Below are positions 2,990 to 14,338 of a stretch of DNA of 14,739 nt, one piece after another (the stretch's first letter is position 1; each line of letters opens with the position of its first letter). The translations under genes were made by a program, and so were the position numbers. Origin of the DNA: Thermoproteota archaeon (lineage in GTDB: Archaea; Korarchaeota; Korarchaeia; Korarchaeales; Korarchaeaceae); NCBI GenBank assembly GCA_015522685.1, contig WALU01000001.1, forward strand, positions 1-14,739, written 5' to 3'. Under the pieces are notes generated by a model that saw only the letters and a list, made by a program, of their open reading frames with translations, did not search any database and was not told where the DNA came from.

Positions 2990-3619
2990 ATGCCAAATTC
3001 AAAGGCCTTCAGATTGGATCTGGAGACATTAGCTGAAAGGATAGCAGAGATAAGTGTACCAAAACAGAGGCTCTTACCTCTAATAGATAGACTGACTAAT
3101 CTTTATAAAATGGGAGCAGTGAAGATTAATCATTCTGCTATGGAACTTGTTATTGCAGCTCATCTCATAGAAAAAGGATATTTAGTAGATATAGAGGTTC
3201 CTTTGGGCGATTTAAGATGCGATGTTATGGGAATAAATAATGAAAAGGTTATTGTCGAGGTTGAGACAGGCTTCGTCCCACCTGACCATGCTTTAGACCC
3301 AGATAGCTTTTGCAGGGCTAGAATAGCAAGCAAGATAGCTAGGTATAGTAGATATGCGGATAAGTTTTACCTTGCAGCCCCACCCACTTACTTTATGGAA
3401 ATACCGTCGTTTCTACTGATGCCTCCTCATATTCATTCCGAGATTGGGCTAATGAAATGGAAAGAGTTATTGGATAGATATTATAAGAATCCACCTATAC
3501 CACTAAAGTTACTGAGAATCGCGAAGCTAAATGGAGTTCTTGTAACGTACGTTGATGAGGGGAGGGTTATAGAGCTGAGCGTTGGATCATATGTTAGGCT
3601 GTGCCTCCAAGGAAAATAA
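2990..3619 (+). CDS. Conserved archaeal hypothetical protein, PD-(D/E)xK nuclease-like fold
   Basis: 209-aa ORF. The pattern H..ME helix ... IEVPLGDLRCDVMG ... VIVEVETG fits the E-D-ExK topology, with E in place of K. Confidence 0.7.
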   Translation: MPNSKAFRLDLETLAERIAEISVPKQRLLPLIDRLTNLYKMGAVKINHSAMELVIAAHLIEKGYLVDIEVPLGDLRCDVMGINNEKVIVEVETGFVPPDHALDPDSFCRARIASKIARYSRYADKFYLAAPPTYFMEIPSFLLMPPHIHSEIGLMKWKELLDRYYKNPPIPLKLLRIAKLNGVLVTYVDEGRVIELSVGSYVRLCLQGK

Positions 3620-3792: not shown

Positions 3793-4335
3793 TTAGTAGA
3801 TGGCGGCTAATAAACCTTTGGTATTTTTCTTTAATAGCCATTGATTTCCGCTGAAGGTCGCAATGGTTGCAGTTGTAAGTAATTGTTCTTCTCTTATCCC
3901 TAACCATATATCTATCGCCTCCTCAACAGTTCTGATCAGTTTCTGATTAGGCTTCCCTAGGGAAACCCCAGGGCATCTCTGGTCCACATATACGTAAAAG
4001 CCTCCGAGTTTGTGTTGAAAATAAGCTTCTTCATCCCTTCCATATTCCGGTCTCTTATATACATGAAAGGGCCATAGCTTACAGGCTACAGGTTTAAGCC
4101 CAATATCTTGGAGAGAGCACATAAGCTTGCCGTTTCGACTTACAAGAAATGGACAGGCCTTTCCTTCTTCTTTCTCTATGTACTCCTTCCCTCCAATAAT
4201 TGCTATCTTATCTAGCCCAAATGCCTCTGCAATTTTCAAAGCCTCATAAGACTTGAGGGGTACTCTAAAGTAAAAGCAGCATAATCCGCATCTATAGCAT
4301 GTGAAGTTGCTTATCCTCCTCCAAGGTAGGAGCAT
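3793..4335 (-). CDS. YkgJ-family cysteine-cluster (CxxCxxCC, putative Fe-S/Zn-binding) protein
   Basis: Motifs FTCYRCGLCC, CPFL, CSLQ...KPVACKLWPF and CPG. SD GAGGTGA lies 4 nt before the ATG. Confidence 0.85.
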   Translation of the reverse strand: MLLPWRRISNFTCYRCGLCCFYFRVPLKSYEALKIAEAFGLDKIAIIGGKEYIEKEEGKACPFLVSRNGKLMCSLQDIGLKPVACKLWPFHVYKRPEYGRDEEAYFQHKLGGFYVYVDQRCPGVSLGKPNQKLIRTVEEAIDIWLGIREEQLLTTATIATFSGNQWLLKKNTKGLLAAIY

Positions 4336-4420: not shown

Positions 4421-5824
4421 TTAGGAAAGGAGCGAAGCCAGTACATTTATAAGCCCTAATCCAGGGATTATTGTTAGGAGCGCGGTTATTACTAACACAT
4501 ATATCTCCAAGTCTGGTGTCTCTTCCTTAACATCAACCTTTGGCGGATCTGAGAAGAGTAGATACCTTATGACCATTGCGTAGTAGCCAACTGAGATACC
4601 ACTGTTTATTATGCCAAGGAAGGCAAGCCAAGGAGCTACTTCCATTATAGAGTAGAAGATATACATGAATTTGCTCCAGAATCCCATTAGGGGAGGCATT
4701 CCCATTAAGCTAAGCAGTAATATAGATATGGATGTGCCAGAGAAGGGCAACTTTCTACCAACTCCACTCAGCCCTTCCAATGTGAGGTCGAATCCTTTTC
4801 TAGCAAAGTAAGCCAGCCCAACGAATATTCCTACCTTAGCTAGGACATATGTCGTGACGTGAAGTCCTATTCCCTCAAGAGCTATAATTTTAGTGTTAGA
4901 GAAGGATAAGGCAGCGAATGCTATGAGGAAGTAGCCTGCCTGACCTATACTAGAGTATGCCATCATCCTCTGAACATTTTTCTGCACGAGTGCAGCTAGA
5001 TTGCCATAGAACATAGTTATTACGGAGAGAAAAGTCATTATCCAGAACCATTCATTTTGAATCGATGGTATCAGGGGCTGGAGAACCCTAAGAAATGCTC
5101 CTATGCTTATGAGCTTTATTACACCAGCGATGAATGAGACTATCAAGGGATGAGCTCCTCCATAGACATCAGGTAGCCATCCATGGAAGGGAACCACGCC
5201 AAGCTTGAAGCCGAAAGAAGCTATAAGCATCATAACTCCCATTAAGAGGATCGCTTTTATTGAATGAGGAACTACCGTGAATTGTACAAAAGCACTCGTT
5301 TTAGTCACACCTAAGACCAAAGCCAAGCCAAATATTAGGAGGGATGAAGATGCAACTCCCATTAAAGCATACTTAGCTGCGGCTTCCAAGGAATTATCAT
5401 CTTTCTTTATGCCTACTAACACATAAGAAGCAACTGACACTAGAGCCCATGCTGGGACAAGTACAGATGCATCAGCCACGTAAAGCACGAAGTAGACACC
5501 AAGCAAAGCCAGCATCATGAGAGAATATAAGCTAGGAGACGTGCTCCATTCTTTAGCTTGAGCAAGAGAGGCTAAGCTAACTAAAAATGCTCCTAGTGTT
5601 GCGATTAGTGCTATATATGTAGCTAGTGGACCTATTCTTAGTACTCCGTTAAAGAGATATCCGCTCTTCCCTACTAGAGTAGTAAGAAGCCCGAGTGCTA
5701 TGGCAGTCGCTAATACCGTTAGATAGGGACTTATTCTACTACTTTCCTTCAGACAATCTATCGTTGGAAGCATGAGCCCAAGGCCGCCTAGCAAGACAAT
5801 TAAGGACCATATTACAGCTTCCAT
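4421..5824 (-). CDS. nuoN: Complex I-like antiporter subunit N
   Basis: 467 aa, polytopic. Motifs EAAAKY, GFKLGVVPFHGWLPDVYGGA, RMMAYSSI and GMPPLMGFWSKF. Confidence 0.93.
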   Translation of the reverse strand: MEAVIWSLIVLLGGLGLMLPTIDCLKESSRISPYLTVLATAIALGLLTTLVGKSGYLFNGVLRIGPLATYIALIATLGAFLVSLASLAQAKEWSTSPSLYSLMMLALLGVYFVLYVADASVLVPAWALVSVASYVLVGIKKDDNSLEAAAKYALMGVASSSLLIFGLALVLGVTKTSAFVQFTVVPHSIKAILLMGVMMLIASFGFKLGVVPFHGWLPDVYGGAHPLIVSFIAGVIKLISIGAFLRVLQPLIPSIQNEWFWIMTFLSVITMFYGNLAALVQKNVQRMMAYSSIGQAGYFLIAFAALSFSNTKIIALEGIGLHVTTYVLAKVGIFVGLAYFARKGFDLTLEGLSGVGRKLPFSGTSISILLLSLMGMPPLMGFWSKFMYIFYSIMEVAPWLAFLGIINSGISVGYYAMVIRYLLFSDPPKVDVKEETPDLEIYVLVITALLTIIPGLGLINVLASLLS

Positions 5825-5827
5825 ATT

Positions 5828-7933
5828 TCATCCCATCCATAATAGCAGGTAAAGGAGAATTAGCATCAGTCCTAGGAAAAATACTAGAAGATACTGGTTT
5901 ATGATGCCTGTCTGAATCTTTCTTACAGCAGAGCCTAACGCTTTGAATGCTTTGACAACCCTATCATTGTAAGTATCATCAATCACATCTGTTTCAAAGT
6001 ACTTGAAGCCTAGAATGCTCAGCTTATTGGTCAACCAGGGTATGAAGCAATGATAGAAGCCGTCTATCATAAGAGTTTCAAAGTACTTGAAAATAGTCCT
6101 GGAAAGCCAGGCAAATCCTTCCACTATAACTATGTAATAGATCGAGTTTATGTACCATCTATCATAGAGGAAGTCATGGAGCACCTTACCTGTGGGATTC
6201 TTTATGGCAGTATGGATCCATTTCCTTCCGCCTGAAGTATAATAGAGACCTATTGCTATCAGAATGCCCATGAACATCATTGCTAGCGAGATAGCAAGCA
6301 TTCCTAGATTGAACTCGAGGCTAGGATAGAACTTATCAGCTATACCCAATACATTACTCACCATGGCCTTTAGGAGTTCAGTACCGTAGATGGGCCATAC
6401 CAATCCTATTATGAACGCTAGGAGGGCTAGAGTGAGGTATGGTAGTAGCATGAGTAGATGGACCTCATGAAGGCGATGCTCCTCCTCCAGACGGAGGACA
6501 TTTTCAGATTTCTCATATAAAAATGTTCTGATAACCATTCTAGTTGAGTAGAAAGCTGTGAGCATTGCTGTTACGACTCCGAAGAAGTATCCTATGAAGA
6601 CTCCTGATTCATGAGCTACTTCTATTATTGTATCCTTAGTCCAGAAGCCCATGAATGGAGGCATCCCCATTAAGCTCAAGGCAGCAAGGCTCATGGCTAA
6701 GAAGGACCATTTCATGATCTTCCAGAGGCCCCCCATATCATCTATAAATCTAGAGCGAACTACATGAATCACAGCACCAGCAACGAGAAATAGAGATGCT
6801 TTAAATATCGCATGGCTCATCAGATGAGATAATCCAGCCAAGAAGCCCAGTGGAAACTCTGCGATGAGTCCTGCTGAACCAAGAGCTAGGAACATGTACC
6901 CGAGCTGAGAGGCTGTTGAGAAAGCAAGTATGAGCTTCAGCTCCCTAGCGACTAGAGCTTGGGTTGCCATAAAGAATGCAGTGAATCCCCCGATTATAGC
7001 CACTGTCGAGAAGAATGCATGTACTTGAGGCCTAGCTGCAGGGATTTCCTGTGCAGCCAAGACGAATATTGGAGAGAACCTGAGAAGAAAATAAACTCCA
7101 GCCTTGACCATGGTTGCAGCATGTATTAAAGCGCTAACTGAAGTAGGACCTGCCATTGCTGTGACAAGCCACTCGTGGAAGGGAAACTGAGCTGACTTGG
7201 CGAAAGCCCCCAAAGAGAACAGCAGAAGGAATGGAAAGAGAAGACCATTGTGAGCCAGCGGACCAGCCCACTGAACAACTTTCTGAGCTATTCCTGGAAT
7301 TGAGAACGTTCCTGTTAGATAATAGAGCGCCCCTATACCTGCTACAAAGCCTACATTTCCTAGCCTCGTGAATACCATTGCTCTAAGCCCAGCATGGCTT
7401 GGAGAGAACCACATAGGCTTTCCTAGAGCCTTTCTCCCTATGTCTCCCATGCACCTCCTGTCCTCATCGGTATACCAATGCCCTATCAGGGCGTAAGATG
7501 CTAGCCCTGTGCCTTCCCATCCTAAGAACATAAGTACCAAGTTATCGGCAAGCACCAGCAGAAGCATGTTCCCTACGAAGAAATCGAAGAAGAACCAGTA
7601 CCTTGTTAGGCCCGAGTCTCCTTCCATGTATTTCAAGCTATATATAGCTATTAGGAAGCTAAGCCAAGCAACAATCAACGCCATGAAGGCGGACAGGGAG
7701 TCTATGTAAACACCGAAAGTAACTCCTATCGATGATATCCATGGATATGATATATGTATTGCATGATTAGCAGTCAGTTCTTCTTGAAGAACTAATGTGG
7801 AGAATATCGCAGAGCCAAAGATCGCTAAGACAGCTATTATATCCCTAGATTTACCTGCTCTATTTAGAAGAAGCGTCAGTATAGCACCTAGATAGGGAGT
7901 TAGCCAAGTGAAGAAGGCATAATCCATTATCAT
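5828..7933 (-). CDS. nuoL: Complex I-like antiporter subunit L with extended transverse helix
   Basis: 701 aa. Motifs FLGWEGTGLASY, AKSAQFPFHEWL, GPTSVSALIHAATMVKAG, LAFSTASQLGYM, HAIFKASLF, GFWTKD and a C-terminal IQTG plus TM helix. Confidence 0.95.
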   Translation of the reverse strand: MIMDYAFFTWLTPYLGAILTLLLNRAGKSRDIIAVLAIFGSAIFSTLVLQEELTANHAIHISYPWISSIGVTFGVYIDSLSAFMALIVAWLSFLIAIYSLKYMEGDSGLTRYWFFFDFFVGNMLLLVLADNLVLMFLGWEGTGLASYALIGHWYTDEDRRCMGDIGRKALGKPMWFSPSHAGLRAMVFTRLGNVGFVAGIGALYYLTGTFSIPGIAQKVVQWAGPLAHNGLLFPFLLLFSLGAFAKSAQFPFHEWLVTAMAGPTSVSALIHAATMVKAGVYFLLRFSPIFVLAAQEIPAARPQVHAFFSTVAIIGGFTAFFMATQALVARELKLILAFSTASQLGYMFLALGSAGLIAEFPLGFLAGLSHLMSHAIFKASLFLVAGAVIHVVRSRFIDDMGGLWKIMKWSFLAMSLAALSLMGMPPFMGFWTKDTIIEVAHESGVFIGYFFGVVTAMLTAFYSTRMVIRTFLYEKSENVLRLEEEHRLHEVHLLMLLPYLTLALLAFIIGLVWPIYGTELLKAMVSNVLGIADKFYPSLEFNLGMLAISLAMMFMGILIAIGLYYTSGGRKWIHTAIKNPTGKVLHDFLYDRWYINSIYYIVIVEGFAWLSRTIFKYFETLMIDGFYHCFIPWLTNKLSILGFKYFETDVIDDTYNDRVVKAFKALGSAVRKIQTGIINQYLLVFFLGLMLILLYLLLWMG
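5991..6091. repeat. 17-bp exact direct repeat GTTTCAAAGTACTTGAA at 84-bp spacing inside nuoL
   Basis: Copies at 5991-6007 and 6075-6091, both encoding FKYFET. Confidence 0.9.
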
Positions 7934-7939
7934 TAAGGT

Positions 7940-9460
7940 TCACCCTGGAACGGGCAACTTGAGAAGGTTGTTTAAGCTGGAGATCATTGGATCCACTAGG
8001 AACTGAGGCATGAGGAAGAATATCATGCCTACTGCAGCGATGACTATCATGGGAATGAGTAGAGTCCATCTCGCCTCTATTGCATGCTCTGTAGATTCAG
8101 TGGTCTTACCAAAGAATATCCTCTTCATGGCGATGAACGAGTAAGCCGTGGATAATCCTATCCCTATCAGGAGGAGTATTGTTGTGGAGATGAATTGATT
8201 TATCTCTATAGCGAAATTAGCTACGCCAGTTAGTATCAGAATCTCGCTCCATAGCCCAAGAGAAGGAGGAACTCCTGTTATATGCATGAAGCCTATGAGA
8301 GCTAGGGATGCCGTTATCGGCATCTTTGAGGCGAGGCCCCCCATCTTACTCAGGCTCCTCAGTCCATGAAGCTGAGTTATCAGCACACCTGCCGTGGCAA
8401 ATAACAGTGCCTTACCAATGGCATGAGCAGCATAGTGCATCAAAGCGCCTGCCATACCAATTGCAGATACGCTTGCCACTCCCATGAGTATATATCCCAT
8501 TTGGGAGACACTAGAGTATGCGAGGAACCTCTTGAAGTCGTCTTGAGCCAAAGCCATCAAGCCTCCATATATAATAGTCAATAATGCCCATCCAAGCATG
8601 TAAGGTGCTATAGCTCTGAAATCAGCTGGAAATAGCACGTAAGCTATTCTTATTAGAGCATATCCAGCTATGCCTATAAGATTTGAAGATAAAAGAGCTG
8701 AAACTGTTGTTGGAGCCTCCGCGTGAGCGTATGGTAACCATATATGTACTCCAAAGACTGCCATTTTCACAAAGAGCCCTATCACTATAGTCATGAAGGC
8801 TGCGAACCTTATGGCCTCAGGCAGCGTCTCACCTAACCCTAGGTTCGCGACTATCTTTATCGGATTGAAATAGTCAAAGGTTCCGACGTTGAGTCCGAGG
8901 ACTAAGGCACCTACTAGAAAGGATAAAGCGCCAACATGAGCCCATATTAGATACAGCAGGGCTATTCTCTCTCTTTTTCCGTATCCATAGAAGGCTATGA
9001 GGAGGAAGCTTGGAAGGAGAGCTACTTCCAGGAATATGTAGAACTCTATTAGGTTATTAGAGAGGACAGTTCCTATCATTGTAGCAGAGAAGAGTATGTA
9101 TAGCATGTAGTAAACTCCCCAACTCGCTGGTTTATGATCCTCTTTCTTCATCTCCTCAAATCTATGATCCATATACTTCAGTGAATACCAAGCTATCATT
9201 GAGGTGACTAAGCCAATGGAAATAGCGAGGGGAGCACTTATAGAGTCAAGCAGCATGGAGAAGTTTCCTATTGCTGGATTTGAGAAAAACACCGGATCCA
9301 AAACTGGTTCCCTAAGACCGTAGATAACCGAAAGCCAGGAGATCACTGCTAGTGGTATAAGTAGCAGGATCGTGCTGATAGTTGCGAATGCCTTCTTTCT
9401 CCAGTTCAGAAATGGAAAAACTAGAGATATTATCATAGGTATAACTATAGATAGGAACAT
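7940..9460 (-). CDS. nuoM: Complex I-like antiporter subunit M
   Basis: 506 aa. Motifs FYIFLE, VKMAVFGVHIWLPYAHAEAPT, KRFLAYSSVSQMGY and GLWSE. Confidence 0.94.
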   Translation of the reverse strand: MFLSIVIPMIISLVFPFLNWRKKAFATISTILLLIPLAVISWLSVIYGLREPVLDPVFFSNPAIGNFSMLLDSISAPLAISIGLVTSMIAWYSLKYMDHRFEEMKKEDHKPASWGVYYMLYILFSATMIGTVLSNNLIEFYIFLEVALLPSFLLIAFYGYGKRERIALLYLIWAHVGALSFLVGALVLGLNVGTFDYFNPIKIVANLGLGETLPEAIRFAAFMTIVIGLFVKMAVFGVHIWLPYAHAEAPTTVSALLSSNLIGIAGYALIRIAYVLFPADFRAIAPYMLGWALLTIIYGGLMALAQDDFKRFLAYSSVSQMGYILMGVASVSAIGMAGALMHYAAHAIGKALLFATAGVLITQLHGLRSLSKMGGLASKMPITASLALIGFMHITGVPPSLGLWSEILILTGVANFAIEINQFISTTILLLIGIGLSTAYSFIAMKRIFFGKTTESTEHAIEARWTLLIPMIVIAAVGMIFFLMPQFLVDPMISSLNNLLKLPVPG

Positions 9461-9485: not shown

Positions 9486-9791
9486 TCACCCTTTGAATTT
9501 CCTCAATTCGTACACATCTAGGGTCTTTCTCATCCTGAACATCATTATGGCTATGGAGACTATGACACCAACCTCAGCAGCTGATAGGGAGATAGCTATT
9601 ATTACAATAGCACCCCCCATGGCCCCATAAGCAGCATCTAATGATGCTAGGGAGAGAAAGGTCAAGAGTGCGGCATTGAAGATAACTTCAGCAGAGAGGA
9701 GCATTCTTATTATGTTCCTCTTTGTGATAAGCCCATAAACGCCAATAGCGAAGAGAATAGAGGATACTATCAGATACCAAAATACCTCCAT
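9486..9791 (-). CDS. nuoK: Complex I-like subunit K
   Basis: 101 aa, 3 TM helices. Motifs LFAIGVYG..KRN, SAEVIFNAA and AAEVGV (both conserved Glu). Confidence 0.93.
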   Translation of the reverse strand: MEVFWYLIVSSILFAIGVYGLITKRNIIRMLLSAEVIFNAALLTFLSLASLDAAYGAMGGAIVIIAISLSAAEVGVIVSIAIMMFRMRKTLDVYELRKFKG

Positions 9792-9796
9792 TTTCC

Positions 9797-10279
9797 TTAT
9801 ACCTCCCTCCTCGCTATTGTTATTGCTCCAATCAGGGCAGTCATTAGCGCCATAGCAGCAACTATGAGGGCAAACCAGTACTTAGTAACTAGGAGAGATG
9901 TTAGCTCCCTGTAGTTTAGGAAGAATGAAGGCTCAGCCGAGAAGGGCGAGAGGACTTTTATGAGAATTATGGTGAGTATTATAACAGATAACACTGCTAA
10001 GGCTTTGATAGGAGGTTCAACTGAAGGAGCTTCCTTTAACATTGCGACTGAGAATAGTATGAATGTAACTGCAGCACCAACATAAACTGAGAGGTGAAAA
10101 AGTGATATTATAGGGAAGCCGAGCAGTGCGAATAGGATCGCATTTCCAACCCCGAGCATTGAGAGGAAGAATGCAGAATATACTATCGACTTATGATAGA
10201 CTATGAATATCGCAGCTATTATTGATAGAGTCGAGGAGAGAAGGAAAATCATTGTAATAGGATTACTCCACAGGCTCAT
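9797..10279 (-). CDS. nuoJ: Complex I-like subunit J
   Basis: 160-aa hydrophobic protein. Motifs VYSAFFL, VYVGAA and ALIGAITIARRE. Lies between nuoI and nuoK. Confidence 0.9.
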   Translation of the reverse strand: MSLWSNPITMIFLLSSTLSIIAAIFIVYHKSIVYSAFFLSMLGVGNAILFALLGFPIISLFHLSVYVGAAVTFILFSVAMLKEAPSVEPPIKALAVLSVIILTIILIKVLSPFSAEPSFFLNYRELTSLLVTKYWFALIVAAMALMTALIGAITIARREV

Positions 10280-10754
10280 ATCTCAATCCCCTCTCTTCAT
10301 CCAGAATGGCTCTCATTTTTTTGGGCTTCTTCTTGTATTGAGGCTTAGGAACTCCCTCCCTGAACTTTTCGGGTGGATATACCTGTTCCTCGAGTGTATT
10401 ATAAACAACATCATGCACTTTAGTGAATTTCAATGAATTGGTTGGGCAGATTGCGACACAGAATCCGCAGAAAACGCACCTCGCGTAGTTAATGCCTGGC
10501 CTTCTCACGGGCTTCTTTCCCTCCTCCGATTCTTCCTTTGATATATACATCTTCATAGCATCTGCTGGACATACCATGGCACAGAGGCCGCACTTTATGC
10601 ATGTATCCCAATTGTACTTTATCATCCCCCTATATCCATCTGGAAATTCCTCTATCTCATCGGGATACATTAGAGTCATTCTCTTACTTGAAACTAAGTA
10701 CTTAATGCCTGTAGCTAGGGCTTTAACATGACGAATGGTCTTATCAACGGACAT
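10263..10754 (-). CDS. nuoI: Complex I-like subunit I (2x[4Fe-4S])
   Basis: TLMYP...GYRG, CIKCGLCAMVCP and CVFCGFCVAICP. Confidence 0.95.
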   Translation of the reverse strand: MSVDKTIRHVKALATGIKYLVSSKRMTLMYPDEIEEFPDGYRGMIKYNWDTCIKCGLCAMVCPADAMKMYISKEESEEGKKPVRRPGINYARCVFCGFCVAICPTNSLKFTKVHDVVYNTLEEQVYPPEKFREGVPKPQYKKKPKKMRAILDEERGLRYEPVE

Positions 10755-10755
10755 T

Positions 10756-11775
10756 TCACATGCCTCCCGTTATCGTAACAATACCTAACGAGATGAATAT
10801 GGCTAGTATGGAAAATGGAAGAGCCATTTTCCAGCCTATATTCATCGCCTGATCTATCCTGAACCTTGGATAGACAGCTCTAAGGAATACCCCTATGGCG
10901 ATAAGGATGAATGCCTTGGCAAACAGCATAGCTCCTGGTAAGAGAGGATTATCCATCATTGAAGCTGGCAGTGGGTTCCACCCCCCTAAGAACAGGATTG
11001 CATAAACTAGGCTTAGGACATAGAGCTTCACGTAAGATGCACCCATTACTAGGCCATACATTATTCCACTGTATTCTGTATAAGCTCCAGCTACTATCTC
11101 GCTTTCAGCCTCAGGTATTTCAAACGGGAACTTGCCCGTCGACATGTATATAAGCACAAGCATAGATATTCCAGCTACTGGGTTAAGAAAGAGTCCCCAT
11201 ATTCCTTTTTGGGCCTCAGCTATATCTACTAGATCTAAGCTGCCGTAAAGGACGGCCATAGATAGTGCAGAGAGAAACATAGGTATCTCATAGGAGATGA
11301 CTAAATATCCCTCTCTAAGGCCCCCGATAAGAGAAAACTTATTATTACTGGCCCATCCCATCAATACGGTGAATATTGGAGCTAATGTCGTAAGGGTCAG
11401 TAATAATAAGAGGCTAAGATCACTTCTGAACGCGTAGAATGTTGGACTAACTGGTATAACTACCGTGGGCAAGTAAGCTAGGCCGAATAGCATGATAGGA
11501 GTAAGGAGAAATGCTATTTTATCAACAGTCTTGGGAATTATCGGCTCTTGGAATAGATCCTTTAGGAGGTCTGCTACTGTCTGTATGACTCCCCCTAGAG
11601 GCTTAAATACATATAAAGGTCCATACCTAAGCTGAACCTTCGCTGCTATTTTTCTCTCTAACCAAATAATCATCAATAGCATTATGAATATGACCGTTAG
11701 CCCAGGAAATATTAAGGGAATGAATATGCAGGGCCTGAATAACAAGCTTATTAGGAAACTTAATAGATCCTGCAT
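10756..11775 (-). CDS. nuoH: Complex I-like subunit H
   Basis: WLERKIAAKVQLRYGP, GWASNNKFSLIGGLR, ISYE, PFEIPEAESEIVAGAYTEYSG and PRFRIDQ. Confidence 0.96.
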   Translation of the reverse strand: MQDLLSFLISLLFRPCIFIPLIFPGLTVIFIMLLMIIWLERKIAAKVQLRYGPLYVFKPLGGVIQTVADLLKDLFQEPIIPKTVDKIAFLLTPIMLFGLAYLPTVVIPVSPTFYAFRSDLSLLLLLTLTTLAPIFTVLMGWASNNKFSLIGGLREGYLVISYEIPMFLSALSMAVLYGSLDLVDIAEAQKGIWGLFLNPVAGISMLVLIYMSTGKFPFEIPEAESEIVAGAYTEYSGIMYGLVMGASYVKLYVLSLVYAILFLGGWNPLPASMMDNPLLPGAMLFAKAFILIAIGVFLRAVYPRFRIDQAMNIGWKMALPFSILAIFISLGIVTITGGM

Positions 11776-12944
11776 TATCTATCAGCCTCCGGTGGGAAGT
11801 AATCTAAGCTACCGTAAATCGCGGGTATATCCGCAACCCTAACTCCTCTGTTAAGGTGCTCGAACAGAATAACATTCCTGAATGAAGGAGTGACCATTCT
11901 CATCCTGTAGGGACTCATCTTACCATCGCTAATTATGTGAAAAATTACCTCTCCTCTACCTCCCTCAACCCTGCTTATCGCCTCTCCTGCTGGGATCCTT
12001 AGGTTCGCAAATATTCCAGGAAACTTTACTTCTCCTGTCTCCTTCATATATTCCCTCATCTTAGGTGAAATTGCCTTTATATACTTCTCATGGAGTATAG
12101 GGCCTTCTGGCATCTTCTTTAGGACCTGCCTGATTATCCTTATGCTTTCCTGTATCTCCTTCACCCTCACCATCACCCTAGCAAATGCATCGCCTACTTT
12201 CTCTGTTATGATGTCAAAATCTATGTCTGGATAAGCGGCGTATGGCTCTACCTTTCTGACATCGTAGGGAACTCCACTCGCCCTCAGGTTCGGTCCAGCC
12301 ACTCCTAATCTTATTGCATCCTCTTTGGATAGTACGCCTACTCCTTCAAGCCTTGCTCTTGTAACTGGATTATTTAAATAGAGATTGAAGTAATCCTTCA
12401 TCCTGTTTTCCATATATCTCAATGCTTTCTCCACTTTCTCAGTGAACCTACTTGGTAGTTCCCTCCTCACACCTCCAGGTATTATATAGGAGTATGAGAG
12501 CCTCGCTCCGGTGAGCTCCTGAGCTAATTCTATGAATGGCTCTCTATCACCGAAGCACCACATATAGGCCGTTGAGGAGCCTATCATTACCCCATGGATT
12601 CCTAAACCATAAAGGTGACTGTGTATCCTGTTTATCTCTGCCAGCAGGGTCCTCAGATATTGAGCTCTGGGTGGGGCCTCTAGGCCTAGAAGCTTCTCAA
12701 GGGCCATTACATAGGCTAGATTATTGGCAGTAGTATCAGCTAGCGATGGTCTCTCGACTAAGGGTATTATTTGGAGGAACTTCTTCGCCTCAGCCAGTTT
12801 CTCAACAGATCTATGAACGTATCCTATATTAGGCCTGAGTTCGACCACTATATCGCCGTCTATCTTCGCTATCATTCTCATGTGGCCCGATGCCGGATGC
12901 TGAGGCCCTATCAATACTTCAAGCTCTCTTTCCTCCAAGCTCAT
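11775..12944 (-). CDS. nuoD: Complex I-like subunit D (no NiFe-binding cysteines)
   Basis: GPQHPASGHMR, IGYVHRSVEK, AEINRIHSHL, TGARL, GPNLRASGV.YDVRK, EGGRGE, PYR...TPSF and GSLDYFPPEADR. No CxxC at either end. Confidence 0.94.
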   Translation of the reverse strand: MSLEERELEVLIGPQHPASGHMRMIAKIDGDIVVELRPNIGYVHRSVEKLAEAKKFLQIIPLVERPSLADTTANNLAYVMALEKLLGLEAPPRAQYLRTLLAEINRIHSHLYGLGIHGVMIGSSTAYMWCFGDREPFIELAQELTGARLSYSYIIPGGVRRELPSRFTEKVEKALRYMENRMKDYFNLYLNNPVTRARLEGVGVLSKEDAIRLGVAGPNLRASGVPYDVRKVEPYAAYPDIDFDIITEKVGDAFARVMVRVKEIQESIRIIRQVLKKMPEGPILHEKYIKAISPKMREYMKETGEVKFPGIFANLRIPAGEAISRVEGGRGEVIFHIISDGKMSPYRMRMVTPSFRNVILFEHLNRGVRVADIPAIYGSLDYFPPEADR

Positions 12945-13417
12945 GCATTTATTCCCTCCGTCTTTATTTTGAACTCCTTCCTCAATGGAGGTAAGCCCTC
13001 ATAGGATTCCGGTAGGAGTAACCTTTCCCCCATCCTTGGGTGCCCCTCGAACACTATTCCCATGAGATCATGCTCCTCATGCTCTTGGTAAAAAGCACTA
13101 GGCCATACCTCTATGAGGGATGGTGTTGTAGGGTCGTTGTAGGGTAGATCTGTCCTTAGATTGATTAGGAAGAATGCTAAATCAAGATTGGAGTATGATG
13201 AGGCTATGTAAACCACTTCAAACCTTTCATTGGGATAATCTATGGCTGTCACTGCTTTAACATGATCGAATCCCAAGGCCTTCAGCTTCTTAGCTACCTC
13301 TACTATCTTATCCCTAGAAACATTGATATTTATCACGTTGGGCTCTTTTCCGCTGATCTCTGCACTCAGCTCTCTTAATCCTTCTTCAATCCTGCTCTTA
13401 AGCTCCTCAAAATTCAT
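12941..13417 (-). CDS. nuoC: Complex I-like subunit C
   Basis: GFDHVKAVTAIDYP, WPSAFYQEHEEHDLMGIVFEGHP and PPLRKEF. Confidence 0.94.
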   Translation of the reverse strand: MNFEELKSRIEEGLRELSAEISGKEPNVININVSRDKIVEVAKKLKALGFDHVKAVTAIDYPNERFEVVYIASSYSNLDLAFFLINLRTDLPYNDPTTPSLIEVWPSAFYQEHEEHDLMGIVFEGHPRMGERLLLPESYEGLPPLRKEFKIKTEGINA

Positions 13418-13907
13418 ATTTCACCAACTCTCCCTTCCTTATCTTCCTTTGCAGCATAATTATGGCCTGAGCTATCCCTTCTGGCCTTGGAGGACATCCA
13501 GGTACGAAAACGCTTACTGGAAGTATATCCTTCGGCCTCACTATGTTGTAACTGTTCCAGAATATGCCGCCATCTATACCGCAAGCCCCCATTGCTACCA
13601 CGAATTTAGGTTCAGGCATTTGCTCATATACCCACTTTGCTGCTTCTCCCATCTTCTTGCTCAGAGTTCCCTCTATGAAGAGAACATTGCACTGCCTTAT
13701 CCCAATGAAGGGGAGGAAGCCAAATCTCTCAGCATCGAACTTTGGAGCTACTGCAGCAGCGAACTCAGCACCACAGCAAGATGTAGTAAAGTGTACTGGC
13801 CATAGAGAGAAAGCTATACCCCAATCCCTTATGTTCCTGATTGGAGTCTTATTTATTAACCATGCCGCCGCCTTCTTGGCAGCCTTATCCAAGTTAGCAA
13901 CCCACAT
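13407..13907 (-). CDS. nuoB: Complex I-like subunit B (cluster N2)
   Basis: SLWP..TTSCCGAE (tandem CC), YEQMPEPKFVVAMGAC and VPGCPPRPE. Confidence 0.96.
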   Translation of the reverse strand: MWVANLDKAAKKAAAWLINKTPIRNIRDWGIAFSLWPVHFTTSCCGAEFAAAVAPKFDAERFGFLPFIGIRQCNVLFIEGTLSKKMGEAAKWVYEQMPEPKFVVAMGACGIDGGIFWNSYNIVRPKDILPVSVFVPGCPPRPEGIAQAIIMLQRKIRKGELVKYEF

Positions 13908-13919
13908 GCTATCTACCCT

Positions 13920-14306
13920 CTAACGCATAGACCATAGTTCAAGCCTCTTTGCATAGCATATACCAAAGATGAGGGGAGATACTAGAATAGCTACCATGGC
14001 CGTGAAAAGGAGAGAGACATTGAAGATGTACCTATGAGCTTCCAATAAAAACAGAAACGAATATATCATTACAGGTTCCAGCATCAAGAATAGTATCAGA
14101 AATGGATAATATTGCATTATAAAAAGTCCTCTTGCTCTCCCCTGCGGTGGATTGGCGCATTCATATCGTTCCTTTTTCTTAGGAAGGTCCTTAGAGGGGG
14201 CTAGTAATTTTCCTAAGATTAGCCCAATAGCTCCTAAACCTACACCTATAACTATGCCTAGGGAAAATGTTATGAGCACATTGTTTACTAAACCAAGACC
14301 TTCCAT
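13920..14306 (-). CDS. nuoA: Complex I-like subunit A
   Basis: KKERYECANPP, QYY..LILFLMLE, 3 TM helices and a LELW end. The ORF track starts at TTG 14336, but ATG 14306 (MEGLGL) fits the promoter spacing better. Confidence 0.92.
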   Translation of the reverse strand: MEGLGLVNNVLITFSLGIVIGVGLGAIGLILGKLLAPSKDLPKKKERYECANPPQGRARGLFIMQYYPFLILFLMLEPVMIYSFLFLLEAHRYIFNVSLLFTAMVAILVSPLIFGICYAKRLELWSMR

Positions 14307-14338
14307 TGTCCCTTGCCCTATTCGAAATCGAAACAATA

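Follow-up and report, generated by a model that had tools for sequence, protein, structure and literature searches.

A third helical module in the lateral helix of NuoL from a korarchaeal complex I with a single NuoM gene

The first 14,739 nt of contig WALU01000001.1 (GenBank assembly GCA_015522685.1; the whole stretch is called the window here) come from a Thermoproteota archaeon of the family Korarchaeaceae and encode a respiratory complex I (Nuo) operon. The source names of the nearest NuoL homologues likewise point to the Korarchaeota. Its NuoL, which together with NuoM and NuoN makes up the antiporter-like subunits, carries a C-terminal lateral helix (HL) built of three repeated modules, U1, U2 and U3. 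We conclude with confidence that the third helical module is a real and ancient in-register duplication. It is equally firm that the lateral helix in this clade of NuoL proteins is modular and prone to the gain and loss of whole modules. A preliminary description of the window took the long helix as a possible mark of a complex with an additional pump, an interpretation that is partly supported. Helix length is no reliable sign of an extra proton pump, because many related archaea with a single NuoM have helices of the same or greater length.

The three units lie at window positions 5906-6151, corresponding to codons 595-676 of the minus-strand nuoL, and read exactly as first described: 26-28-amino-acid (aa) segments that follow one another in register between a WY and a QTG motif. 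NuoL of the window shares with the canonical NuoL/Nqo12/ND5 proteins of Thermus thermophilus (4he8), Escherichia coli (3rko) and Paracoccus (8qby) the fold, the order of transmembrane helix (TM) 15, HL and TM16, the WY...Y start, the IDG junction and the QTG end. It differs from these solved proteins in having three modules where they have two. Two is also the number in bacterial and ammonia-oxidiser NuoL, in agreement with the earlier statement about standard NuoL. The clearest proof of a 28-aa insertion is a double alignment, in which segment 651-657 of Paracoccus NuoL (8qby_L, VIDGTIN) aligns to the start of U2 and, as a separate HMMER domain, to the start of U3. Against T. thermophilus Nqo12, residue 562 of the query pairs with 510 and residue 659 with 567, the window NuoL being 40 residues longer over this interval. 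The distance from the W of WY to the C-terminus is 108 residues, compared with 77-84 residues (two units) in all 42 bacterial L-M-N loci with an unambiguous anchor.

An exact 17-bp repeat at a spacing of 84 bp had been offered as further support for a tandem duplication. The repeat itself is real. Its copies are spaced 84 nt apart and share 83% identity over 29 nt, and the exact 17-nt core occurs twice in the window, whereas none of 200 shuffles gave two matches. The core encodes the peptide FKYFET, common to U1 and U2. However, U1 and U2 are identical at only 11 of 28 residues (39%) and in 48% of their DNA; the duplication is therefore old, and the repeat is ruled out as proof of a recent one. 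Third codon positions at shared U1/U2 residues match in 9 of 11 cases in the window and in 2 of 8 to 7 of 9 in relatives, which fits shared codon use. The 17-mer is a conserved motif spelled with the same codons and not the product of a recent event.

Tandem repeats can mis-assemble, and the 17-nt identity could stem from that shared codon use, yet the probability that the third unit is a chance similarity or an assembly error is practically nil. An assembler could neither collapse nor expand copies whose DNA matches at only 48% of positions. This explanation is also refuted by the recurrence of the three units in 15 loci fetched from other Korarchaeota genomes and in dozens of assemblies made independently.

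Neighbourhoods of nuoL were collected from a scan of named genomes, from 40 Thermoproteota, from 20 Korarchaeota loci and from 80 metagenome loci; the Thermoproteota scan covered 401 genomes, 308 with a NuoL match, from which the 40 neighbourhoods were taken. Helix length is quantised throughout. Among the 120 closest NuoL clusters, the W-to-QTG distance falls at about 52, 80-82, 108-111 and, once, 137. From W to the start of TM16, 157 NuoL open reading frames (ORFs) from the window and the fetched loci occupy bands of 48-56 (60 ORFs), 76-84 (73) and 104-112 (14), with 4 mis-anchored ORFs and 6 without an anchor assigned by eye. The window NuoL, with about 82 residues from W to Q, belongs to the second band. 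Korarchaeota and Thermoproteota NuoL have two, three, four or, once (protein P0044), five modules, in clean steps of 27-28 aa.

Module number changes at least 20 times on a tree of the NuoL core (FastTree, 146 rows) that was built with the lateral helix cut off. The three-unit state is common to Korarchaeota and several Thermoproteota lineages and is the usual state in the window's NuoL clade; it also occurs in the cultured Thermofilum pendens and Infirmifilum lucidum. The WY-to-QTG length, which the preliminary description had set against that of single-M NuoL, does exceed the length in bacteria and ammonia oxidisers, but it is standard for the single-M NuoL of the window's own clade.

Several loci carry tandem copies within nuoL. 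Loci L154 (2355-2522) and L192 (11860-12027), both four-module and from related species, contain 84-nt copies with 100% identical DNA. The repeat unit differs between the two, which points to either two recent events or gene conversion. In L182 (7536-7697), 81-nt tandem copies are 96% identical. Loss is suggested by the two-unit NuoL of Desulfurococcales-like archaea, whose last module starts like U2 (IDAFYHIGIP) and ends like U3, a hybrid that may have arisen when a three-unit helix lost one module in register. Four units have been stably inherited within one diverged clade (L145-L149, L157).

The operon has a single nuoM, as first described, and the same holds for the genome (92% complete, 63 contigs). 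A PF00361 profile search of this genome matches only M, L and N of the window, and the NuoM protein used as a query against it retrieves only itself, L and N. In the window's genus, 14 of 15 genomes have a single M, L and N only, among them G011 (single contig, 99% complete), and the fifteenth has no PF00361 match. An M paralogue encoded elsewhere, one of the options first suggested, is therefore excluded. In a sample of the Korarchaeota phylum, PF00361 matches occur in 28 of 29 genomes, and 20 of the 29 have nothing beyond one M-sized, one L-sized and one N-sized frame that adjoin by their coordinates. Exactly three PF00361 genes are present genome-wide in eleven three-module genomes (G419, G415, G307, G058, G170, G207, G372, G264, G163, G127 and G055), and only three were found genome-wide in the four-module genomes G028 and G349. 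G027, with three modules, and its congener G028, with four, have the same antiporter gene set. The NuoL match of the Thermoproteota genome G307 (G307:C5:112686-114806) contains one in-frame TGA.

Module number follows gene number only loosely. The locus survey comprised 134 unique archaeal loci, 83 of which have at least 4.7 kb on both sides, and other antiporter-like genes were counted within 7 kb. Two-module loci (26) have two such genes in 25 cases and none in one. Three-module loci (50) have two in 37 cases, three in 12 and one in a single case, while all six four-module loci have two and the only one-module locus, from Hodarchaeota, has one. The combination seen most often among the archaea of this sample is three units accompanied by only two further antiporter-like genes. 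The proposal that the helix is a special 2M-like signature of the window's complex is not supported, since three units are common in its clade and most three-unit loci and every four-unit locus have just two other antiporter-like genes.

The same decoupling is seen in bacteria, where loci of Ignavibacteria and Zixibacteria combine three modules with a single M in the cluster. In the Ignavibacteria with a three-module NuoL (G031, G032), further PF00361 genes lie on separate contigs and might represent a second M that has become detached. Zixibacteria genome G033 has two nuo L-M-N clusters (C25:61971-66431 and C31:338418-343049), one with a three-module NuoL and no second M adjoining.

The twelve loci with a third gene comprise four true M-L-M'-N clusters (L006, L008, L099 and L114), in which the archaeal M is encoded upstream of nuoL, and eight Thermofilum-like loci. 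The second M (M') at L006:12105, L008:13341, L114:11039 and L099:12579, the last of them basal, groups with bacterial NuoM and apart from archaeal M (FastTree, support 96-100). This placement suggests that archaeal M' is an old paralogue or a transfer from bacteria. Within a sister NuoL clade, the loci with M' are interspersed with three-unit loci that lack it and with two-unit loci, and none of the 100 rows in the window's own NuoL clade has one. An M-L-M label that BLAST had given to some loci was rejected, as the M/N tree places them as N-L-M.

At the Thermofilum-like loci (L088:2-2482; also L087, L089-L092, L178 and L183), nuoA is immediately preceded by two genes of its own strand, one L-like (about 555-570 aa) and one M-like (430 aa). 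These clusters contain five antiporter-like genes in total, and the 430-aa proteins form their own long-branch clade.

Complex I with a second NuoM, the 2M type, was reportedly described by Chadwick et al. (2018, ISME J 12:2668). Complexes of this type have four antiporter-like subunits in the assembled enzyme. The window shares one of their marks and lacks another: it has a helix insertion of about 26 aa (28 aa here) and no second nuoM gene, in the operon or elsewhere in the genome. Moreover, the window's clade has no M', and its modules are recognisable mutual repeats that number up to 4-5. In the part of PMC9040806 covered here, the 2M complexes have a 26-aa insertion in the NuoL helix that is tied to the second NuoM. 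The preliminary description was right about this size, and the insertion of about one module occupies the corresponding position in NuoL's C-terminal amphipathic helix. Nitrospira locus L017 pairs a three-unit helix with L-M-M-N genes, and L006, L008 and L114 likewise combine three units with two M genes.

A closer parallel comes from 'Ca. Manganitrophaceae', whose Complex_I_1 and Complex_I_2 (Yu et al. 2022, PMC9040806) are reported in the same part of the paper to have a 2M-size helix insertion in clusters of their own without an extra NuoM. Its authors propose that such complexes either have the capacity to accommodate additional pumping subunits or are in the course of gaining or losing it. 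Unlike the window genome with its single M, L and N set, 'Ca. Manganitrophaceae' have several complex I operons, one with extra pumps that could lend subunits. Nor does the part of the paper covered describe a series of two to five modules or recent perfect duplications. A literature search that left out the original 2M paper and supplements, which may bear on the question, gave nothing in print on module variation in archaeal NuoL, on the long helix as the common state in a large single-M archaeal clade, on the helix as an array of two to five modules with frequent, sometimes perfect tandem duplications, or on the bacterial type of the archaeal second M. The Korarchaeota genomics paper PMC12787533 does not mention Nuo or complex I.

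We favour, at a little under an even chance, an enzyme that has L, M and N in single copy and carries a modular strap prone to slippage. The 1:1:1 reading is preferred because the helix is so often long, and changes in length so readily, even between congeners, without any change in the gene set. U2 derives from an in-register 84-bp tandem duplication spanning the junction of two ancestral modules. Unequal pairing between the repeated modules would then add or remove whole units of 27-28 aa while the antiporter set stays M, L and N. The extra 28 residues (about 42 Å as a helix) would lengthen the clamp and add no pump. A helix rises by about 1.5 Å per residue, so one module is about as wide as one antiporter-like subunit or the NuoK/J/A bundle. 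Our best guess is that TM16 would be carried past NuoN and along the NuoK/J/A bundle towards NuoH, and it may stand one station nearer NuoH. We infer both the 1:1:1 L:M:N stoichiometry and the position of the extra length.

The AlphaFold2 (AF2) model of the window NuoL, made from a 111-row alignment, has a mean predicted local distance difference test score (pLDDT) of 90.8. At the C-terminus, helices are placed at residues 543-565, at 567-673 in three pieces and at 678-700. The last of these is TM16, and it is predicted to follow a single uninterrupted 82-residue helix (592-673) that includes U2. The pLDDT of the lateral helix is 79-89 over residues 590-640 and 64-75 past 640. Foldseek returns TM-scores of 0.7-0.8 to NuoL, ND5 and NdhF chains. 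The root-mean-square deviation is about 10 Å for full-length chains and 3.3-4.0 Å for chains without the helix end, a contrast that is expected if the core fits and the strap end does not. Along residues 592-673 the phases of the hydrophobic moment drift, with the strongest period at 4.0. An AF2 model of the five-module NuoL P0044, from a 9-row alignment only, has a mean pLDDT of 54.6 and is of too low quality to be used. A prediction of a complex with two copies of NuoM (residues 1-498, 48-row alignment), run without controls, scored 0.00 and bears neither way.

Several observations weigh against a lengthened strap on a 1:1:1 enzyme, and many of them speak for an alternative in which module number sets how many antiporter-like subunits fit. 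The single NuoM would then stand between L and N in two copies, or three in four-unit species. Wherever subunit numbers are known or can be inferred, helix length scales with the subunits spanned: one unit with a single other antiporter gene (L010), two with M and N, and three with M, M and N (L017 and the four archaeal loci). U2 matches in size the insertion reported for 2M complexes (in the part of PMC9040806 covered), and a third antiporter-like gene is found near nuoL only with three units (12 of 50 loci, compared with 0 of 26 two-unit loci). Within the clade of the ammonia oxidisers, three units are found at L006, L008 and L114, which have a second M, and two units in the ammonia oxidisers themselves, which do not. 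U2 also repeats conserved positions of U1 (N/D2, Y5, Y/H6, S17 and D/E25), as would fit if U2, like U1, contacted an M-like surface. At every module number TM16 is entered through QTG-x4-Y, so this motif gives no sign of a new docking site. A straight strap cannot cover every case, as five modules (P0044) at about 1.5 Å per residue would overrun the whole membrane arm. The PDB matches, by sequence and by Foldseek, include no structure of an archaeal Nuo complex. Finally, the 40 Thermoproteota neighbourhoods were mostly chosen for full-length alignment to the query, which favours long helices and biases the frequencies.

The Hodarchaeota NuoL-like protein at L010:9956-13396 has 621 aa and about one module, TM16 beginning 27 residues after the YY motif. 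A single antiporter-like gene follows, and there is no N within 8 kb.

Stable inheritance of the four-unit state in L145-L149 and L157 shows that long forms work, and the energy for an extra pump would be available if the electron donor were ferredoxin, in keeping with the NuoF result below. Under this model the ion/electron ratio would shift through slippage of 84 bp, with no new gene required, and the state would become fixed later, once a second M gene arose by duplication or was acquired, as in 2M complexes. Against this, no single antiporter-like gene is known to fill two positions that are not equivalent; in the parts of the papers covered that cite 2M complex I (PMC9040806, PMC7300363 and PMC7117926), known or inferred cases have separate M1 and M2 genes. 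In addition, the congeners G027 and G028 would differ in pump number on identical gene sets, and five modules would imply six antiporter-like subunits. We consider repeated use of NuoM possible but doubtful. A stricter rule is unlikely; it would allot one antiporter-like subunit to every 28-residue module, place the single NuoM in two or three positions and make 2M complexes the gene-fixed end point.

Another possibility is that the ancestor was a true 2M enzyme with M, L, a bacterial-type M' and N and a three-unit helix, and that M' was lost here, leaving a spare module that is tolerated and is lost or duplicated at random. M' does exist in archaea (L006, L008, L114 and the basal L099), its scattered occurrence in the sister clade is what repeated loss would give, and the NuoL tree contains many independent returns to two units. 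However, the window's own clade has no M', and U2 has kept its sequence. Conservation was taken as the mean frequency of the commonest residue over 40 three-module NuoLs, filtered so that all share less than 85% identity. It amounts to 0.42 for U2, 0.45 for U3, 0.43 for TM16 and 0.39 for TM15, with 0.51 for U1 and 0.66 for the TM core. U2 is therefore not decaying, its constraint being about equal to that of the rest of the C-terminus. In the 111-row alignment, conservation reaches 90% or more at D624, Y627, H628 and P632. E647 of U2 is conserved too. Fourth modules have been added and kept. A segment without use would be more likely to decay or to accumulate indels of uneven length, but the observed length bands are clean. 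Such a history is improbable for the window; it suits the sister clade better.

The gap of about 40 Å under the extra module might instead be occupied by a non-homologous membrane protein encoded outside the operon. This would satisfy the length rule without a second M, and accessory membrane parts do vary, as the two additional antiporter-like genes upstream of nuoA in Thermofilum-like genomes illustrate. The window offers no candidate, its operon being a plain set of 11 genes, and no co-occurrence search was made; we regard this explanation as very improbable. The features of the window are collected in Table 1.

Table 1. Coordinates of the complex I genes, the NuoL C-terminal elements and the DNA repeat in the window
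Feature	Position (nt)	Strand	Description
nuoA	13920-14336	minus	Pfam PF00507
nuoB	13407-13907	minus	Pfam PF01058
nuoC	12941-13417	minus	Pfam PF00329
nuoD	11775-12944	minus	Pfam PF00346
nuoH	10756-11775	minus	Pfam PF00146
nuoI	10263-10754	minus	Pfam Fer4 families
nuoJ	9797-10279	minus	Pfam PF00499
nuoK	9486-9791	minus	Pfam PF00420
nuoM	7940-9460	minus	506 aa; the genome's sole M-type gene; PF00361 (8.7e-60); archaeal-M clade of the M/N tree
nuoL	5828-7933	minus	701 aa (P0001); antiporter-like subunit L with C-terminal TM15, HL and TM16; ORF, Pfam and PDB sequence matches
HL module U1	6068-6151	minus	Residues 595-622, INSIYY...FKYFETLM; aligns to Paracoccus 8qby_L 613-657
HL module U2 (extra)	5984-6067	minus	Residues 623-650, IDGFYH...FKYFETDV; no counterpart in two-unit NuoL
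HL module U3 (canonical last)	5906-5983	minus	Residues 651-676, IDDTYN...RKIQTG; aligns to Paracoccus 651-698 and T. thermophilus 567-603
TM16 (C-terminal anchor helix)	5834-5902	minus	Residues 678-700; AF2 helix; aligns to the Nqo12 C-terminus
DNA repeat copy 1	5979-6007		29 nt, 17 exact; encodes the end of U2
DNA repeat copy 2	6063-6091		84 nt from copy 1; encodes the end of U1
nuoN	4421-5824	minus	467 aa; PF00361 (3.7e-49); N clade of the M/N tree

The complex I operon has the gene order nuoA-B-C-D-H-I-J-K-M-L-N, all on the minus strand, with the nuoA-K block at 9486-14336. Pfam searches of the window ORFs reveal no further membrane subunit among its 11 genes. NuoF (PF01512) has no match in the 92%-complete genome, in a search that did not extend to NuoE and NuoG. 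The gene set nuoABCDHIJKLMN without NuoF fits the archaeal 11-subunit Nuo-type complex, a class defined by the absence of NuoEFG.

NuoL has the core and N-terminal domains PF00361 (Proton_antipo_M, 8.4e-54) and PF00662 (Proton_antipo_N, 2.9e-13), and its top PDB sequence matches are NuoL, Nqo12, ND5 and NdhF. These domains, the TM15-HL-TM16 C-terminus and the core complex I genes alongside identify it as a NuoL/ND5 protein. E140, K246 and K378 are invariant across 111 homologues; they may be the equivalents of the TM5 Glu and the TM7 and TM12 Lys of the E. coli proton path. Compared with T. thermophilus Nqo12, NuoL also has an insertion of about 16 residues between TM helices (residues ~153-178, window 7400-7480; HWYTDEDRRCMGDIGRKALGKPMWFSPSH). 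This insertion is conserved in the 111 archaeal homologues and is modelled at lower confidence (pLDDT about 70).

Three ORFs lie 3' of nuoN. A 180-aa protein (3793-4335, minus strand) has a weak match to CxxCxxCC (PF03692) just under the Pfam cut-off, a 209-aa ORF (2990-3619, plus strand) has no Pfam match, and a 652-aa acetyl-CoA synthetase-type AMP-binding enzyme is encoded at 380-2338 on the minus strand.

Insertions in the NuoL helix serve as a sequence mark of complex I with an extra pump. Within this large archaeal group the mark is widespread and often changes, for the most part independently of how many pump genes are present. Either gene-based surveys of respiratory stoichiometry cannot rely on it, or a single gene product is used repeatedly, which would go unseen in operon-based surveys. 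If module number does set pump number, close relatives would come to pump different numbers of ions per electron through 84-bp slippage. Natural enzymes with two, three and four modules, some of them in cultured thermophiles, offer a direct way to probe the function of the strap and how its length is to be read.

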